DNA of 20,000 nt from an uncultured virus (IMG/VR IMGVR_UViG_3300002835_000127) (lineage: Duplodnaviria; Heunggongvirae; Uroviricota; Caudoviricetes), in the IMG/VR virus record IMGVR_UViG_3300002835_000127, positions 55,452-75,451 of that record, one strand, 5' to 3'. A model generated the notes under the pieces. That model saw only the letters and a program-made list of their open reading frames with translations, searched no databases and had not been told where the DNA came from. The translations under genes were made by a program, and so were the position numbers. Positions 5,245 to 16,128 of this stretch are shown one piece after another; position 1 is the stretch's first letter, and the number at the start of each line of letters is the position of its first letter.

Positions 5245-5770
5245 TCTGTTCTATTTTTTTCAATACACTATATAGTTCCTTCGGTATCCTGTTAAATGCA
5301 GGATCAGTTATAGAGGAATCGTAATCTATAAAATTCAAGAAGTCTTTCTCGTCTGCCTTTATTCTACGGTCAACGTCGTCTGCATCTCTTCTCATAGACA
5401 TTCTATCTCTTCTTATATTCTCGTCGATGTCAACATAGAGAATAATGGACTCGCTTCTGTCTTCAGGTGATAACTGAGAAATTCCAGAAGGTGTCATTAT
5501 AAATAAATTAGATTTGTGAAACTCCGATTTACTCGTTCCGTAAACCCATCCATTAAATATGGTGTGCTCCAAAAAAAGATCTTCCAGTATCATCCCATAA
5601 GCATCGGACTCCTTTATGAAATAGTAATCTATACCCTCTTCCTCATCGGATCTCATCGGTCTAGTTGTATGGGAAACACAATAATTGAAGCCTTCCTCAA
5701 CCATCATCTTTCTCAAGTGGTCCTTGCCAGAAGCTCCCTTTCCTGCTATTATAACTCTTTTTTTATTCAT
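5237..5770 (-). CDS. gmk: Guanylate kinase
   Basis: P-loop GKGASGKD, signature SHTTRPMRSDEEEGIDYYF, and YGTS. Confidence 0.9.
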   Translation of the reverse strand: MNKKRVIIAGKGASGKDHLRKMMVEEGFNYCVSHTTRPMRSDEEEGIDYYFIKESDAYGMILEDLFLEHTIFNGWVYGTSKSEFHKSNLFIMTPSGISQLSPEDRSESIILYVDIDENIRRDRMSMRRDADDVDRRIKADEKDFLNFIDYDSSITDPAFNRIPKELYSVLKKIEQND

Positions 5771-8485: not shown

Positions 8486-10129
8486 CTATGCAGTCTCTTC
8501 CTCAGCGGGTGCTGCCGCTTCCGCTGGTGCTGCCGCTTCTTCTTCCGCTGGAGTTGCCTCGCCCTCAGCTCCGCTAGTAGAGCTTTCCTTTTTAGCAGAT
8601 TTAGCTTCGAGCTCTTTGTATGAAGCATTGCCCTCTATCTGCTCCGGGGTTAGACCTAAAAATCTCTGAACAAGGAAATCTTTATCAAAATAAGGCTGCT
8701 CTTCTTCACCAACTTTAACTTTCATGTCAGCAAGAGATTTTATAAAATCCCCTCTTTTAACTAGATTAGCAAGTTCAACCAGATCGTTGAATTCGCTTTC
8801 TCTTACGAAATTAATTCCAAGATTAGTTTTAAAGCTTCTATCTTTTACAAGCTCCGGATAATCAAGACACATTTGTATATAAAGAGGCTTAACTATGATT
8901 TCCTGATAAATCGATCTCAATCTGGAAAGAAACTTCTCGAACCTTATCTCGTCTCTTTCTAAAGAATCGATGCTAATCTGGTTGTTTGCGGGTGTTCCCC
9001 CTCTATAAGCAAATCTTGCATACGGTATTTTAGAATCTTGCTTTAGTTTATTGAAGAAGTAAAGCACGTTGTCCATGATATTAAAATCAGGTCCAGCTGC
9101 ATTTAGTGTTTCTATGGTAGGGGAAACACCATCCTTCTCAGGGAAAAGATAGTTTTTATAGAACTGAATTTTCGGTCTTCCGTTAACAGTCAATTCACCT
9201 GAATTGTCGTTTATAGATATTTCCTCTTTATGATAAGACATTATTTGTCCTAGCGTTTGCATGGCCTTTTGTGGTGACTGTGTACCTATAGGTATAACAA
9301 ACTTCAATCTATATGAAGCGTTCATAACGTTCCATATAATCCTGCTGTTCTCCATTATTTTCAGGATATTATAGGATCTAACTAGTCTCTCAACATAACT
9401 TACCCTGGAGATTGCATTACCCTTAGCATATGATATGTAGATAACCTGCTCATTCTTAAGCTTTCTTGTCATTTGGGGATTCTTTGGATACTGAACCCAA
9501 ACCTGTTGAAAATCATTCTCGCCAACTTTTTCAACCATAGGCTGAAGTGATGTTGCATCGAGTTCTTTAAATCCAATAACTTGCTTGCCTCTGCTATCGT
9601 AGATTATCTCATAAGCTAGAAACCCATCAATTAGGAGCTGTCTAAATACCTGCCAAGCCAATATGCTTTCCTGAAAATTGAAAAGATGATAGATCCGGTA
9701 AAAATTCTCCATCAGTTTATCTTTCACCTTATCACTTACGTCCAAATTCTTGATCTCAGGATATGCAAAATAATTCTTCTCGTCGTAAACCACAGCTTCA
9801 TCAGTTACCGTATCGAGTATAAACTCAATCTCACCGTTTAGCGAAAACTTTCTAAGAAAGTTTCTTTTGTCTATGTAATCCTTATCGAAATAAGCTATGT
9901 ACTTTCTTACTTTTGTATCCGAATGAGAAACTGTCCAATAGAAAGCATCGCTTTCAGTAAATCCAGATCCTTGCTCGTTGAAGAATTCCGATTCGGTCTT
10001 ACCTATGGCCTGCGAATTTCTAACAACCATATCTTCGTACTTCATACCAAACCTAGATATCTGAGAAAGACTTCTTAGTATCGTTCCGAATGCACTATTT
10101 GGTTGTATGGGATCTATAAATCCTGCCAT
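8486..10129 (-). CDS. gp20: Portal vertex protein (T4 gp20 family), paralog B
   Basis: EIEFILD.VTDEAVV, IDGFLAYE, SYVERL, F.IPIG, NYLFP, YF..KL...SKIP..R and RDEIRFEKFLSRLR motifs typical of gp20. Acidic Ala/Pro tail. Confidence 0.9.
   Translation of the reverse strand: MAGFIDPIQPNSAFGTILRSLSQISRFGMKYEDMVVRNSQAIGKTESEFFNEQGSGFTESDAFYWTVSHSDTKVRKYIAYFDKDYIDKRNFLRKFSLNGEIEFILDTVTDEAVVYDEKNYFAYPEIKNLDVSDKVKDKLMENFYRIYHLFNFQESILAWQVFRQLLIDGFLAYEIIYDSRGKQVIGFKELDATSLQPMVEKVGENDFQQVWVQYPKNPQMTRKLKNEQVIYISYAKGNAISRVSYVERLVRSYNILKIMENSRIIWNVMNASYRLKFVIPIGTQSPQKAMQTLGQIMSYHKEEISINDNSGELTVNGRPKIQFYKNYLFPEKDGVSPTIETLNAAGPDFNIMDNVLYFFNKLKQDSKIPYARFAYRGGTPANNQISIDSLERDEIRFEKFLSRLRSIYQEIIVKPLYIQMCLDYPELVKDRSFKTNLGINFVRESEFNDLVELANLVKRGDFIKSLADMKVKVGEEEQPYFDKDFLVQRFLGLTPEQIEGNASYKELEAKSAKKESSTSGAEGEATPAEEEAAAPAEAAAPAEEETA
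8508..8539. repeat. 18-bp-period coding tandem repeat (EAAAPA x2) in the portal B tail
   Basis: ggtgctgccgcttc at 8508 and 8526. Confidence 0.7.
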
Positions 10130-10140
10130 TTCTATTTTTT

Positions 10141-10148
10141 TATTTATA
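10141..10148 (-). promoter_or_regulatory. T4-type late promoter TATAAATA
   Basis: Exact T4 late consensus overlapping the portal A stop codon, 11 nt upstream of the portal B ATG. Confidence 0.6.
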
Positions 10149-11718
10149 AAGTAACTTCTGGTGCTTCTTCCTCTCCGCCTTCCTTCTCTTTCTTCTTGGC
10201 ATTCTTTTCTTTTGCTATCTTGTTAGCTTTAATGTCTGCAGGTGTAAGTCCGAGAAAATTCTCAATTAAGTAAGTCTGTGAAAAATAAGGTTTATCCCCG
10301 TCTTCCATTATAGCAGCCAATGAATCTACGCTTTCTTTTCTCTTAGTGATCAATTCCATCTCCTGGTTTACCCTAAAAGGGTTCTCACTGATGTACTTAA
10401 GTCCAAGTTGGCTCTTAAAAACTAGATCTTTTTCTAATTCCGGATTGTCTTTACATATTTGTAACCAAAGTGGCTTTATAATGATATCCTGAAAATTGGT
10501 TCTCAATCTACTTATGAACTTACTAAATCTTACCTCTTCCTTGTCCAGGCCATCCGCAGTGTTGGAATATGTTGCACTAGAAGATCCATCTAACCCCTTA
10601 AATCTTGTAGCAGGTATTTTAGATTCCTCTATGAATCTATCGTAGAAATATGCAAGAGGGGCAGGATCATTTAAGTTCGGTCCCTCCATTGTCAAGGGCT
10701 CAATTGTAGGTTGACCGTTTTGGCCCTGTGGTATCAGATAATTCTTATAGAATTGTATCTTAGGTGCTCCGTCAACTAGCAATTCACCAGTATCATCGCT
10801 CAAGCTAATATCCTCCTTATAGATACTCATAAGTTCACCCAAGGTCTGCATAGCTTTCTGAGGTGATCTTGATCCAACAGGAACGGTCATTTTAAGCTTG
10901 AATGAAGCATTCATCACTGACCAAATTACCCTAGTGTATTCTATAATTCTTAGGGTATTATAAGGTCTAATTAATCTCTCAACATAACTTAATCTGGAAA
11001 CTGAATTTCCCTTAGCATAAGACATGTATATGATCTGGGAGTCATATAGCATTCTTGTCTTTTTAGGGTCATTCGGAAATTGTATCCAAACGTTGACATG
11101 TCTTCCGTCTGGTTGTTTTTCTACGCTAGGTATTAAAGAAGTAGCGTCCAATTCTTTAAATCCAATTATCTCTTTCCCCCTATTGTCCCAGATTATTTCA
11201 AATGCAAGGAATCCGTCCACCATGAATTGTCTAAAGAATTGCCATGCTGTTATATCATCGCTAAATCCCCAGATGTCATATATTTTTCTAAAAACGTCAT
11301 AAACCTTTTCTCTTGTTTTTTCTTTTAGAGTAGTTATATCTAGAAAATCGGGATATGCGTAATAATTAGAAGGGTCGTAGTTTATGGATTCGTCACAAAC
11401 AATATCAAGAACTCCTTCTATCTCCGGGTTAAGAGAGAATTTCCTAAGATAATCCCTCTTTCCCTTATAATCCTTGTCGAAATAAGAGATATACTGTTTG
11501 ACCATAGTATCTTGCTTCGCAAGACTATACATCATATTCTCATCAGGAACGTTTGTTTTGTTCTGATTAATGAAAGCAGCTTCAGTAGCGCCAACAGCCA
11601 TGGAGTTCTTAATCACCATGTCCTCGTATTTCATACCGAACTTAGAGATCGACTTAACAGATTCCCTAATCCTCTGAAATACCGGATTACCATTTTCGTT
11701 ATCTATAAAACCAGCCAT
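10144..11718 (-). CDS. gp20: Portal vertex protein (T4 gp20 family), paralog A
   Basis: PEIEGVLD.VCDESI, VDGFLAFE, SYVERL, NYLIP, SKIP..RF and KEEVRFSKFISRLR motifs. Colinear with 8486-10129 along its length. Confidence 0.9.
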   Translation of the reverse strand: MAGFIDNENGNPVFQRIRESVKSISKFGMKYEDMVIKNSMAVGATEAAFINQNKTNVPDENMMYSLAKQDTMVKQYISYFDKDYKGKRDYLRKFSLNPEIEGVLDIVCDESINYDPSNYYAYPDFLDITTLKEKTREKVYDVFRKIYDIWGFSDDITAWQFFRQFMVDGFLAFEIIWDNRGKEIIGFKELDATSLIPSVEKQPDGRHVNVWIQFPNDPKKTRMLYDSQIIYMSYAKGNSVSRLSYVERLIRPYNTLRIIEYTRVIWSVMNASFKLKMTVPVGSRSPQKAMQTLGELMSIYKEDISLSDDTGELLVDGAPKIQFYKNYLIPQGQNGQPTIEPLTMEGPNLNDPAPLAYFYDRFIEESKIPATRFKGLDGSSSATYSNTADGLDKEEVRFSKFISRLRTNFQDIIIKPLWLQICKDNPELEKDLVFKSQLGLKYISENPFRVNQEMELITKRKESVDSLAAIMEDGDKPYFSQTYLIENFLGLTPADIKANKIAKEKNAKKKEKEGGEEEAPEVTL

Positions 11719-12849: not shown

Positions 12850-13209
12850 TTAAACGTTGTAACTATTATCCTCCCCTGTTATATAACTGAAGGGTATAGT
12901 TTTAGGATTCTTTGGCGGGTGTAATTTCTTCCATCCCTTAGCAAATCCATTCTTTGCAACCTGAGTGAAGTAGGCAAATGGATTGTTAGATTTAGCAGGG
13001 TCAAATCTATTCCAATATTTGCAAAGATCCTCCATGGCAAAAGCCATACAATCGTCCTTATCGTCAGGATCCTTGTAAGCCATCTTCTTAGAAATACCTT
13101 CTATCATGAGGGTAAACATATCGATTGTCTCTCTTGTTAGCTGACCCTTCTCTTTAGATTCGGATACGGCTCTAAGGAGCTCACTGTTTTTAACATAAAC
13201 TTTTGCCAT
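12850..13209 (-). CDS. gp55: Late transcription sigma factor (T4 gp55-like), minimal 119-aa form
   Basis: YVKNSELL N-terminus, DDCM..AMED, and FDPAKSNNPFAYFTQ..KN.F, the gp55 region-2 signature. Confidence 0.85.
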   Translation of the reverse strand: MAKVYVKNSELLRAVSESKEKGQLTRETIDMFTLMIEGISKKMAYKDPDDKDDCMAFAMEDLCKYWNRFDPAKSNNPFAYFTQVAKNGFAKGWKKLHPPKNPKTIPFSYITGEDNSYNV

Positions 13210-13230
13210 TCTGCGGGGTTTTTTATGTGC

Positions 13231-13266
13231 AAAAAAAATCCCCCATTCTTATTAGAAACAGGGGAT
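13231..13266 (-). terminator. Terminator-like hairpin in the gp55 leader
   Basis: ATCCCC-TGT-TTCT-AATA-AGAA-TG-GGGGAT running into a U8 tract. Confidence 0.6.
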
Positions 13267-13300
13267 ATTTTATCTTTGTGCTTAAATTTTAGAATTTATC

Positions 13301-13329
13301 TTTATATTAAGCTTTTACTTGTTTGTTTC
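13301..13329 (-). promoter_or_regulatory. Putative early/middle promoter GAAAC-N18-TATAAA upstream of the gp55-like gene
   Basis: Same bipartite motif and spacing as at 2576 and 7027. Confidence 0.55.
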
Positions 13330-13476
13330 GGCCTCGTCTTCCTCGCTGTCCTCTACGTGTTTGTTTATCGGCTTAGTTGGAGCCTTTGCGAACTTTCCCT
13401 TTAGAGAATCTACGAAAGGCTTACCTGATTTATTTTGTTCTGGATTCTCAGGAGCAAAATAATAGTTACGACTTAC
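13315..13476 (-). CDS. -1 frame C-terminal extension (53 aa) of the scaffold-like protein
   Basis: Open frame VSRNYYFAPENPEQNKSGKPFVDSLKGKFAKAPTKPINKHVEDSEEDEAETNK*. It has no ATG, begins at the slippery site and contains an AKAP repeat. Confidence 0.75.
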   Translation of the reverse strand, partial: VSRNYYFAPENPEQNKSGKPFVDSLKGKFAKAPTKPINKHVEDSEEDEAETNK

Positions 13477-14005
13477 TTTTTTTTTTGCAATTCAGATTCT
13501 TCTAAGTTATATCTGAGCTTGTCATTTACTCCAAAGTCTATAGCATCTCTGTGCTTGCTTCTAGAGGTAGCAGTATTTGGGCCCGATTTAGTAGCCACTC
13601 CTTCTTCTACCTTTCTATATCCATGCAGCAAATCCAGTGAAAGATCTATTTTGTCATTGCTTCCTGGAGCTTTCGCATATCCGTGTTTCTGTGCCATACC
13701 AGCTAAAGCATTTTTATCGTGCGTTCTCTCAATTTTACCGAAATTAGGAGCTTCTGCTAATCCTTGAGATCTATCTTCTACTTCGCTAGCTTCGTCGATA
13801 TTATAACCAATAGCATATCCAGCAACATCGAAATCTGTTGGCTTTTGTCCTTTAATTCCTTCCGCATAATGGGCAGCTTTAGGATTCTTTAGGTCGTGAG
13901 CCATTGGTTTCTCCTGATCCTTAGATCTAGGAGCTTTAGCATATGTTGGCTGTGATTGCTTTTCTTTAACATTTTTAGTTCTCGTAGGTGCTTTAGATAA
14001 AGTAG
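13378..14005 (-). repeat. Degenerate protein-level repeats (LSKAP, YAKAP, LAEAP, YAKAP, FAKAP; GYNIDE/GYRKVEE/RYNLEE)
   Basis: Read from the translation. The series spans the frameshift site. Confidence 0.65.
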
Positions 14006-16067
14006 TATTTGATTCCTTTACTTCCTCGGTGCCATCCTCTTCTTCAGACTCGTCACTTTCTATATCACTAGCAGGATCATTGTCGAAATAGTCTTTATCG
14101 AAATCACTTGTCTTTTCAGCATTTTTTTCTGCTGCATCTGACATAGCTTCCTCTAAATCTTGAATATCATTTACTCTATGATCCTCTGTTCTACCCGCAT
14201 CGGTTAAAATTGTATATCTTCCCGAAGTACCGTCTATTGAAACGATTTTACCGGTTTCTCCTGATTCTTTTATTTTAACATAGTCTCCTATATTAAATTT
14301 AGCATCCTCTATAAGGTACATGCTAGGATCTAAATCAACATTTTCAATTTTCTCGATCTCCTCGTTGATGCTAGCCCATTTATTTCTTAAAACCTTCAAT
14401 TCCCTTTTTAGCATTTTCTCTGCTTCTTTAAGCTCAGACGAATGCGAGTAGTTAGGATTTTCTATCAAGGATTGAACTTTGGCCAACTGTTCCTCAACAT
14501 TTTGTATGTTTTCAAGAAGACTAGATCTGTCATTTAGAAGAACCGATTTAGTTCTTAATTCACCAACCAAGAATTCGCTTAGACCTTCAGAAATATCATA
14601 TCTTAATGTGTCTTTTACTAACTTAACAGCTTGCATGCTATTAACAGAGAATATTGAATTCTCTCTCATAGCTTCATTTATTCTTTGAAGGTAGATCTTA
14701 TCGTTCCATTTGAACAGATTAACAGAAAGTCCCTCGTAAATTCTAGATACGATCGACTTAGCAAAATCAAGCTCCACGAAAGAATTGTAATTTTCATAAA
14801 CGGTAGCTATATCTTTTACAAGAGACATATCATTATATCCCATATAAGAGGATACTTCCAATCCTATTATCTTAGCCATTTCGTTAACATTAGAGAAAGC
14901 TAATTTATTTCTACCAACAAATACATTAGGATTATTCTCCGTTCCTTCTGTTATACTAACTACCTTCTTGCCGATTGAGAAATGAACACCCGCTTCATTT
15001 ATCTTAACATCGGGTCTAGAAGTAATTCCCAATAGATTAACAAATGTATTACCGTATGAAGAAGCTGCAGTCTTAGCGTCTATTCTCTGTACGCCATTCT
15101 CTGTTGCTTCGAAAATAAATCCACCAAGGCCAAATGCGAAATTTTGATCCTCATTAGTTGCCATTGCGGAATAAGCTCTCTCTACGTATGATTCACCTTG
15201 ATTAGTTTCAGGGATAGAAAGTCTGCTTGAATCTTTTCGACTTTCGTTAAGATTCAAATAGTTTATAAGGTTTTTAACTACAGGATTGAAAGAATATTTA
15301 GAGATTTGATTAACTAGGAGACCGTTTGACTTGTCTTTAGATACCATCCACTCATTTAAACACTCATAAAGATCAGAGTAAAATTCTCTAGATCCAGATC
15401 CCTTAATAGAATCTATCACTTTAGAAACGTATATCTCTCTGTTGTAAGTATTAGCTTTACCTAGAAGTGATTCAAAGACCTCCTTAGATTTAGCATCCCA
15501 TGTCAATTGGCTTAAATCATTAACAAAATTTTCAATAACTGCATACTCTGGGATATTCTTATTAACAAGGATATTTTTATAATTCTCTAACATGATCTTA
15601 GCCTTCATGTGCTCGGCAACAGGTGAACTAAGAAGAGACTTAACAGACTCAAGAACACCTAGATTTTTAATAGACTCAGAAGTTAAAAAAGAATTAACAG
15701 ATTTATCACCTTTTATGTGAGAAAGGGACTCGTTTAAAGAACTCATCTCTTTATCACCTGATTTTTCTTTAGAAGGCGTAATCCAAGTTCCGGAATTATC
15801 TCCTTTAGATGTATTCTGGCTCCAAGATTCCAAAAGTGAAGAAGCTGCTCTTTTGGAAGCTTCCATTTCTTGATTTCTGAAATCATTCCAGATGTTTGAT
15901 GTATTTTCTCTTAAGAAACCAGAAACCTCAACATCATTGGAATTTTTAAGTCCCTCTATAAGGGTATTTTTATTTGATGCCTCGTTTAAGAAGTTCTCAC
16001 ACAGAGATTTAACCTCCGGTGAGGTAGTAGTTTCTTTTAATTTTTGTACTTTGTTAATGAAGTCCAT
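13473..16067 (-). CDS. Large prohead core/scaffold-like or internal head protein (864 aa; 917 aa with -1 shift)
   Basis: Many (L/I/V)-x-E-(S/A/G) motifs like T4 gp21 protease sites, coiled-coil and acidic segments, an embedded KOW/SH3-like domain and AKAP repeats. Double late promoter and location next to head genes. The function is an inference. Confidence 0.6.
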   Translation of the reverse strand: MDFINKVQKLKETTTSPEVKSLCENFLNEASNKNTLIEGLKNSNDVEVSGFLRENTSNIWNDFRNQEMEASKRAASSLLESWSQNTSKGDNSGTWITPSKEKSGDKEMSSLNESLSHIKGDKSVNSFLTSESIKNLGVLESVKSLLSSPVAEHMKAKIMLENYKNILVNKNIPEYAVIENFVNDLSQLTWDAKSKEVFESLLGKANTYNREIYVSKVIDSIKGSGSREFYSDLYECLNEWMVSKDKSNGLLVNQISKYSFNPVVKNLINYLNLNESRKDSSRLSIPETNQGESYVERAYSAMATNEDQNFAFGLGGFIFEATENGVQRIDAKTAASSYGNTFVNLLGITSRPDVKINEAGVHFSIGKKVVSITEGTENNPNVFVGRNKLAFSNVNEMAKIIGLEVSSYMGYNDMSLVKDIATVYENYNSFVELDFAKSIVSRIYEGLSVNLFKWNDKIYLQRINEAMRENSIFSVNSMQAVKLVKDTLRYDISEGLSEFLVGELRTKSVLLNDRSSLLENIQNVEEQLAKVQSLIENPNYSHSSELKEAEKMLKRELKVLRNKWASINEEIEKIENVDLDPSMYLIEDAKFNIGDYVKIKESGETGKIVSIDGTSGRYTILTDAGRTEDHRVNDIQDLEEAMSDAAEKNAEKTSDFDKDYFDNDPASDIESDESEEEDGTEEVKESNTTLSKAPTRTKNVKEKQSQPTYAKAPRSKDQEKPMAHDLKNPKAAHYAEGIKGQKPTDFDVAGYAIGYNIDEASEVEDRSQGLAEAPNFGKIERTHDKNALAGMAQKHGYAKAPGSNDKIDLSLDLLHGYRKVEEGVATKSGPNTATSRSKHRDAIDFGVNDKLRYNLEESELQKKK
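13476..13486 (-). other. Slippery site: A10 tract ending in in-frame A_AAA_AAG immediately before TAA
   Basis: The minus strand reads CAA AAA AAA AAG TAA. The heptamer at 13482-13476 is the canonical bacterial -1 frameshift motif in the correct phase. Confidence 0.7.
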
Positions 16068-16088
16068 GAGTTAATAATTTTTTTGTAT

Positions 16089-16128
16089 TCTATATATCTT
16101 TTTCAGAGTACTTTTTGGTCTATATATC
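16089..16128 (-). promoter_or_regulatory. Tandem late promoters GATATATAGA x2, 30 bp apart
   Basis: Identical 10-mers at 16119-16128 and 16089-16098 in the 62-nt gap upstream of the 864-aa gene. Confidence 0.75.

Follow-up and report, generated by a model that had tools for sequence, protein, structure and literature searches.

The end of one long gene in an uncultured giant T4-like lake phage of the Caudoviricetes raises the question of whether a run of ten adenines, placed directly before a stop codon, lets a single gene make two proteins, and which machine would slip there, the RNA polymerase or the ribosome. The gene lies in a stretch of 20,000 nucleotides (nt), hereafter the window, which is the final 20 kb (positions 55,452 to 75,451) of the 75,451-bp IMG/VR record IMGVR_UViG_3300002835_000127, a record estimated to be about 27% complete and containing 37.7% G+C. 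Positions given below are those of the window unless stated otherwise. The minus strand carries nearly all genes of the window, including this one, an open reading frame (ORF) of 864 amino acids (aa) (13473..16067, minus strand), hereafter the body, which terminates TTG CAA AAA AAA AAG TAA. The run (A10; 13477..13486, minus strand) holds the in-phase heptamers A_AAA_AAA and A_AAA_AAG, and the 0-frame TAA stop (13473..13475, minus strand) stands immediately 3′ of it. The −1 frame opens at G13476 and continues for 53 codons without a start codon (13318..13476, minus strand) up to a TAA (13315..13317, minus strand); we call this extension the tail. A reading of the DNA letters made without database searches (the sequence-only reading) had drawn attention to the run, the stop and the open −1 frame, and we recovered the same coordinates and an identical translation. 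That 864-aa and 917-aa products are made from this one gene, as it proposed, is very likely, the longer one carrying a hidden −1-frame extension that is under selection. The explanation that we prefer is programmed slippage at the A10 run, with RNA polymerase slippage as the main route to the two forms, and we give it a probability of about 0.55.

The window alone does not make this arrangement significant. An open frame of 53 codons is expected by chance in about 3% of cases at this composition (an estimate from base frequencies), and about two to three A runs of at least nine are expected per 75 kb, with two seen in the record. The significance comes from conservation. A protein search found ten close loci in other viral contigs, eight of which reach the end of the gene, with 75-100% protein identity. 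The string C-A10-G-TAA-G and the 53-codon open −1 frame are kept in all eight of these loci, which come from other assemblies; the close set amounts to six distinct DNA versions, the one in the window included. Of its 49 variable tail columns, 11, 6 and 32 are at the first, second and third codon positions of the tail frame, respectively.

More distant relatives show the same design. Among 8000 scored candidates, 225 protein homologues were found at E ≤0.001, of which 120 were listed. The C-terminus is KK[KNS] in 110 of the 121 family proteins (P0001 and the 120 listed), with 86 ending KKN, 22 KKK and 2 KKS. With 20 diverse members as queries, a locus search gave 180 matching stretches; 165 of them encode relatives, and the best 80 were kept. 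These 80 include nine contigs from the close set, and four are cut off before the gene end, leaving 76 informative loci. In every one of the 76, a run of A9 (62 loci) or A10 (14 loci) lies directly 5′ of a homologous tail of 49-77 codons. Since these counts include refetched contigs and closely related assemblies, the safer number is that of unique versions: 51, of which 41 have A9 and 10 have A10, at protein identities down to 37%. A tail-anchored DNA pattern that allowed runs of A6 to A14 again returned only A9 or A10, in 49/49 viral loci and 31/31 metagenome loci (26 distinct versions), the sets overlapping each other and the 80 loci. The tails share the blocks [LV]SRNFYFAP and GK[LFM][SA]KAP and an acidic end; for the tail of the window, the corresponding blocks are SRN[YF]YFAP and GK[FL][AS]KAP. 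Thus the relatives keep a KK[KN]-stop end together with a conserved open −1 frame, as the sequence-only reading had asked of homologues. Its caveat that a true A11 would make a single ORF is not borne out, the independent assemblies never showing such a longer run. The putative slip site is deeply conserved and is not a sequencing error.

Several searches returned little or nothing. A first metagenome pattern, built for the close clade, gave 0 matches; a locus search with the close alignment (A1) gave no further loci; and a DNA search of 3.4 kb against GenBank phages gave no match. The tail alone, searched against 5.8 billion proteins (longer lengths), gave eight candidates, none of which scored; this search is a weak one, and the homologues with the tail in frame (see below) came from searching with the whole protein. 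Among 1.84 billion representatives, a profile search recovered 211 proteins at E ≤0.001, and many of the distant members likewise end in KKK or KKN. The family has many members, and these occur widely among uncultured giant phages from lakes and other waters.

Selection on the tail frame is purifying. Over the first ~33 tail codons of 32 aligned rows, the ratio of nonsynonymous to synonymous substitution rates (dN/dS, NG86) is 0.21 in the tail frame versus 1.10 and 1.81 in the other two frames, and the same rows contain 0 stops in the tail frame versus 83 and 123 in the others. Entry into this frame from the body is confined to a short stretch. Because the −1 frame has a TGA five codons upstream (13492..13494, minus strand), both frames are open over just 18 nt, the A10 run included. 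As claimed earlier, the tail has no ATG; GTG and TTG are absent from it as well, and the ORF list of the tail region holds no ATG, GTG or TTG ORF of at least 20 aa on the minus strand. We rejected the tail as an independent gene for lack of a start codon. Three plus-strand ORFs across the tail (59, 47 and 42 aa) were rejected as well, as the codon-position pattern fits only the minus-strand −1 frame. The terminator-like hairpin noted earlier beyond the tail is present at 13266-13238 on the minus strand (11 pairs, followed by a T run; 13231..13266 together). It lies 50 nt past the stop of the tail, not past the 0-frame stop, and is kept in the close relatives.

The stop codon at the run appears to be held in place. 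The arrangement seen in the window, with the tail in the −1 frame, is found in 70 of the 76 loci, and in all but three of them (67 of 70) the stop of the 0 frame, TAA or TAG, starts 1 nt past the run. The exceptions are L055 and L056, which have one codon between run and stop, and L045, in which the 0 frame continues for 12 codons. The two tail residues that overlap the stop vary (LS, VS, VD, LK, LR, VT), the first tail codon always being NTA and the next starting with A or G. Since the stop is kept although these residues vary, the position of the stop itself is under selection.

In a few relatives, body and tail form a single frame: the loci L065-67 and the database proteins P0094, P0114 and P0117. 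The sequence-only reading would have been refuted by homologues with a continuous ORF and no slippery site; the homologues with a continuous ORF that we found retain A9 in its usual phase. It is the bases flanking the run that are altered in them, not its length. In L065-67 the −1 frame ends after three codons, so a slip there would shorten the protein, and in these in-frame phages the same slip would yield the short form. A different arrangement occurs in L069, L070 and L075, which share one sequence (about 5290-5530). A body ORF of 931 aa ends early there (...NNEE, then two stops). Shortly after that stop a separate frame of 75 codons opens, in which part of the peptide before it recurs; this frame holds the A9 run, about 80 nt past the body stop, and the tail. 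The arrangement may reflect a small duplication or insertion, or the copy may be broken.

The position and the spacing of the site also vary in more distant clades. In a clade found by a search with the protein P0214 alone (528 aa, 20% identical to the window protein in alignment A3; locus L094, 4040-4700), an A9 run lies in mid-gene with a TAG one codon later, and the −1 frame runs for 205 further codons, completing the SH3-like domain. In the P0138-like clade (773 aa; L098, 4290-4560), the gene ends with A9, G and TAA, and is followed by an 80-codon −1 tail of unrelated, helical-looking sequence and then by a gp55-like gene. A tblastn search of the protein against phages gave only remote matches (19-24% identity over residues ~101-613) in LR756500 and Lak phages, and the remote homologues in LR756500 and Lak-A2 have no A-run site.

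How would the two forms arise? The run is as long as the RNA:DNA hybrid, and host RNA polymerase would add an extra A in part of the transcripts. On these slipped transcripts, ordinary translation would read into the tail and give the 917-aa form, while unslipped transcripts would lead to termination at the adjacent stop and to the 864-aa form; in the window, transcripts landing in the third frame would end within a few codons. Papers are cited here by PMC number, for excerpts of their text. Bacterial RNA polymerase slips efficiently in vivo on nine A/T, its hybrid being 9-10 bp, and the dnaX gene of Thermus uses such slippage (PMC5009743). In the reporters of Antonov 2013, frameshift product amounted to 10%, 40% and 63% for 7, 9 and 11 A's (PMC3711429), and Koutmou 2015 describes robust ribosome sliding at A11 and little at A9 or A10 (PMC4363877). 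We infer from the comparisons given here slippage itself, the step at which it occurs, the ratio of the forms and the role of the tail.

The chief competitor is programmed −1 frameshifting by the ribosome as the main route, with a slip on A_AAA_AAG (A_AAA_AAA or A_AAA_AAy in relatives) aided by a pause at the stop. We consider it possible, though distinctly less probable than polymerase slippage, and the two differ first in what they ask of the run. A heptamer shift needs 6-7 A's, and the run is at least nine in every relative, which favours the polymerase. The first A is the third base of a codon for a varying residue (L, V or S; Q or E where the run is A10), and in the body gene 41%, 30% and 21% of the L, V and S codons, respectively, end in A. 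Among the 51 unique versions, the next base after the run is C 26 times, G 18 times and T 7 times. Most relatives therefore carry A_AAA_AAC or A_AAA_AAT, which are far less shifty than A_AAA_AAG in E. coli (PMC5009743), and this too favours the polymerase. The same holds for the lack of conserved RNA structure: RNAalifold gave 0 conserved pairs 3′ of the run (34 of 50 unique versions). The window's own fold is unremarkable (z = −1.84, equalled by 12 of 200 shuffles), and by inspection of alignment A5 no G-rich block resembling a Shine-Dalgarno (SD) sequence is kept in the 20 columns 5′ of the run. The high shiftiness of AAG requires a host that has just one tRNA-Lys (PMC5009743). No tRNA gene was found in the window.

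Several observations nevertheless weigh against the polymerase and mostly for the ribosome. In E. coli, no known −1 shift site is better than A_AAA_AAG, which the window carries in phase (PMC5009743), and an in-phase A-rich heptamer occurs in every relative. Any A9 includes an in-phase A_AAA_AAA, so the length of the run alone is no argument for excluding the ribosome. The run keeps its phase, with xxA AAA AAA AAy or xAA AAA AAA AAy in 48 of the 51 unique versions, and in nearly all −1-type loci the stop stays next to it despite the varying tail residues; a polymerase needs neither. Ribosomal shifting is classically promoted by a slowly decoded stop beside the shift site. Some dnaX genes place the stop of the short product directly after the shift site (PMC5009743). 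One further point counts against polymerase slippage: an RNA-library contig of a relative (X18; 16 differences in 217 nt, depth 2.2) spans the run without a gap and at a DNA-like length.

The library data are to be read with their form in mind. Of the public runs, 20 of 24 contain the stretch or part of it, and 14 lake-water DNA runs contain all sampled words and are possible sources of it. The runs were examined as contigs, from which minor run-length variants drop out, and RNA libraries may hold DNA. RNA-library contigs cover 13271-13437 (X15, in the tail), 13375-13591 and 13477-13779 and none of the rest of the gene, which proves nothing, and the fact that one of them ends exactly at the edge of the run is, for a single contig, no hint. 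These contigs show only that the region is present in RNA libraries, and a minority of slipped transcripts would be invisible in them. On balance, the ribosomal A_AAA_AAG shift that the sequence-only reading had put first is not specifically supported, and the transcriptional slippage that it had named second fits better.

The probability beyond polymerase and ribosome is shared by a mixture, variation at the DNA level and error. The DNA-level explanation holds that the run length varies in replication, as in a phase-variation-like switch among phage subpopulations. Homopolymers also slip in replication (PMC3711429), and the protein P0008 ends like an A9 version of the A10 clade in the third frame. 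We nonetheless think this improbable: A9 or A10 stands in the clade-typical frame relation in 156/156 locus rows (many of them refetched contigs), the in-frame variants differ in the flanking bases rather than in run length, and the DNA contig X1 covers 13000-15019 without a difference, X1 being possibly the source of the window DNA. P0008 itself is a close homologue known from a single contig; its C-terminus, ...QKKSKP, is the third-frame product of a run one A shorter than that of its clade, and it is a natural or assembly run-length variant. Least probable is the absence of any recoding, with the tail a dead remnant or a separate small gene, or with a mis-assembled run in what is one ORF: the window is a metagenome assembly and in-frame homologues exist, but purifying selection acts on the tail frame across 32 diverged rows, a remnant would gather stops, a separate gene would lack a start codon, and the 51 unique versions from independent assemblies agree on the run, so this explanation is close to refuted.

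Two side observations concern other features of the record. The terminator-like hairpin (13238-13266, minus strand) lies about 210 nt 3′ of the slip site and has a CCCC/GGGG stem; in T7, a terminator CCCC located over 200 nt beyond the shift site on its 3′ side influences the frameshifting of gene 10 (PMC5009743). This likeness may be a coincidence. The only other A/T run of at least nine in the 75-kb record is an A10 at G000:C1:49075-49084, outside the window, which, between the capsid gene and the one after it, makes up a hairpin loop (GGGC-A10-CCC, part of TTAGGGC...CCCTAA).

In the body protein, the N-terminal and central region is conserved; it is followed by a coiled-coil stretch, by an SH3-like domain (residues ~593-621) and by a C-terminal region that is acidic and of low complexity and contains four x[AS][KE]AP motifs. 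Its sole Pfam match is a weak SH3 match (PF20297, E 0.0018), which is below the cut-off. The 864-aa protein has no PHROG, NCBIfam, PDB-profile or ESM Atlas match, the best PDB rows (E 0.018 and 0.21) being at chance level, and 34 distant homologues have no family match either. The sequence-only reading had called the gene scaffold-like; neither the protein nor these 34 homologues show sequence or profile similarity to T4-type proteins of the prohead core, scaffold or head interior (gp22, gp67, gp68, internal proteins or Alt). In the in-frame homologues P0094, P0114 and P0117, a peptidoglycan-binding domain, PG_binding_1 (PF01471; residues ~122-174, E 1e-12 to 1e-13), is inserted in the variable N-terminal region. 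This is a lead only: like ejected head proteins, the protein might come into contact with the cell wall.

Most likely the tail is a disordered peptide in which the body's short xxAP motif occurs two more times. The sequence-only reading had described it as continuing the body's own repeats, citing FAKAP in the tail; LSKAP, YAKAP, LAEAP and YAKAP are indeed found at body residues 690-801. The continuation is limited to this five-residue motif, as BLASTP of the tail against the body is not significant (E 82, over the FAKAP/YAKAP stretch). The LEE-S reported just upstream of the slip site was also located: L-E-E-S occupies residues 855-858 (13494..13505, minus strand) and, as a member of the motif [LIVM]xE[SAG], is a candidate prohead-protease site. 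The prohead protease of T4 cuts after Glu in L/I-x-E motifs. The Glu of [LIVM]xE[SAG] lies exactly seven residues from the short-form C-terminus in 93 of the 110 homologues ending in KK[KNS], and the motif occurs within the last 16 residues in 104 of the 110, against a chance expectation of about 28%. Processing of core proteins by gp21 and C-terminal processing of Alt have been described (PMC5694885).

The tail may thus be used in head assembly and then cut off. More speculatively, and in our view with rather little probability, it could be a removable C-terminal assembly or targeting peptide on the slipped fraction of the protein. With its two extra xxAP docking motifs and its acidic end, it would bring that fraction into the prohead or to a binding partner inside. 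Cleavage by the gp21-like protease at the conserved [LI]xE|S, seven residues ahead of the run, would then remove it, and polymerase slippage on an A run of fixed length would set how many copies of a head-internal protein these giant phages make; the cassette, found at three positions in the family, would then serve to make body-only and body-plus-module isoforms.

The genomic setting is a set of T4-type genes. Directly downstream lie genes for a gp55-like late sigma factor (12850-13209), a gp4-like head-closure protein, a gp2-like DNA-end protector and two T4-type portals, and genes for a gp21-like protease and a gp23-like capsid protein are found elsewhere in the record. The two portal genes are adjacent paralogs (8486-10129 and 10144-11718, minus strand) of 547 and 524 aa, matching PF07230 at E 4.5e-64 and 1.1e-56. 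One portal protein is normally enough per head. The gp21-like prohead protease (residues ~19-240; G000:C1:50885-52915, outside the window) is fused to about 15 tandem 14-residue repeats of the type YSEY[LI]AEN[LV]Dxx[IL]x, each with [LI]AE[NS], and looks like a protease-scaffold fusion.

Upstream of the body gene are two tandem ATATATAG boxes, candidate late promoters (16120-16127 and 16090-16097, minus strand; span 16090..16127), and a leader run of A7 (16078..16084, minus strand) 10 nt upstream of the ATG; in most relatives listed this run is A7-A11. The layout recurs across the family: the ATG is preceded by an A7-A11 run in most members and, farther upstream, by two ATATATA[AG] boxes at a distance of about 30 nt from each other. 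In the upstream regions of L012-L083, the leader run begins 4-6 nt after the second box in most relatives and lies 8-12 nt before the ATG. One possibility is that the boxes are a tandem late promoter and that the A run is a leader for reiterative initiation or for a translation start that needs no SD sequence. Of the 18 ATATATA[AG] boxes in the 75-kb record, 17 are on the gene strand; several of them stand ahead of ORFs, those of the protease-capsid operon and of a portal gene among them. We infer a strongly expressed late gene of the head cluster.

The class of mechanism is already known (dnaX, insertion sequence (IS) elements, spa13, tssM; T7/T3 gene 10; gpG/GT), and no new mechanism is revealed here; the phage protein family is undescribed. 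No literature on the slip site of this family was found among the best-ranked full-text matches, and in the literature on jumbo and huge phages the term “transcriptional slippage” was absent among the best-ranked matches. A term search of a 2025 paper on a lineage of large aquatic Bacteroidota phages (PMC12619734), to which the window phage may or may not belong, found neither “frameshift” nor “slippage”. Gene callers split or truncate the gene in every assembly, and all but a few of the 121 family proteins are the short form, with the tail unannotated. The case warns against dismissing “frameshifted” genes at A runs in phage metagenomes as errors. The family also offers a natural series, with A9 and A10 runs, stops against the run or farther from it, in-frame variants that keep the run and the device at three positions, and this could serve to study the tuning of homopolymer slippage and the reason for keeping a stop next to the run.

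Among known systems, frameshift-made C-terminal extensions occur in T7/T3 gene 10A/10B, in Lactobacillus phage A2, in the Listeria phages A118 and A500 and in lambda gpG/gpGT (PMC5009743). Like these, the present gene, a probable phage late gene, would give a major short form and a minor extended form, in a ratio set by the slip site. Those extensions, however, arise by ribosomal shifts on specific heptamers (of the G_GUU_UUC type in T7) rather than on at least nine A's, and their roles are known (capsid, tail chaperone). In Shigella spa13/mxiE (PMC5009743) and Citrobacter rodentium tssM (PMC4256274), transcriptional slippage at an A run gives length variants, so that part of the molecules is C-terminally extended or restored, as would be the case here. 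In contrast to the window family, these are bacterial secretion genes without family-wide conservation over such distances, and the excerpts consulted describe no adjacent-stop design.

The dnaX genes offer a comparison for either machine. The heptamer A_AAA_AAG in phase is identical in E. coli dnaX and in the window, and a short and a long product are expected in both. However, E. coli dnaX has a 5′ SD-like sequence and a 3′ stem-loop as stimulators, neither of which is conserved here. The shift makes the short product in E. coli and would make the long one here, and the heptamers of the relatives mostly end in C or T. Programmed transcriptional slippage on a homopolymer of 9-10 bases is known from Thermus thermophilus dnaX (tau/gamma) and from the two-ORF dnaX of Chlorobi (PMC5009743, PMC3711429). 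There, as here, an A/T run of hybrid length lies in the gene, the products share the N-terminal body and differ at the C-terminus, and stops lie nearby in the non-productive frames. In the two-ORF dnaX, which has an A10 run (PMC3711429), the short product is likewise made in frame 0 and the long one needs a slip. The present case differs in being a probable phage late gene of an unrelated family, with slippage deduced from sequence and with the stop set against the run in nearly all members.

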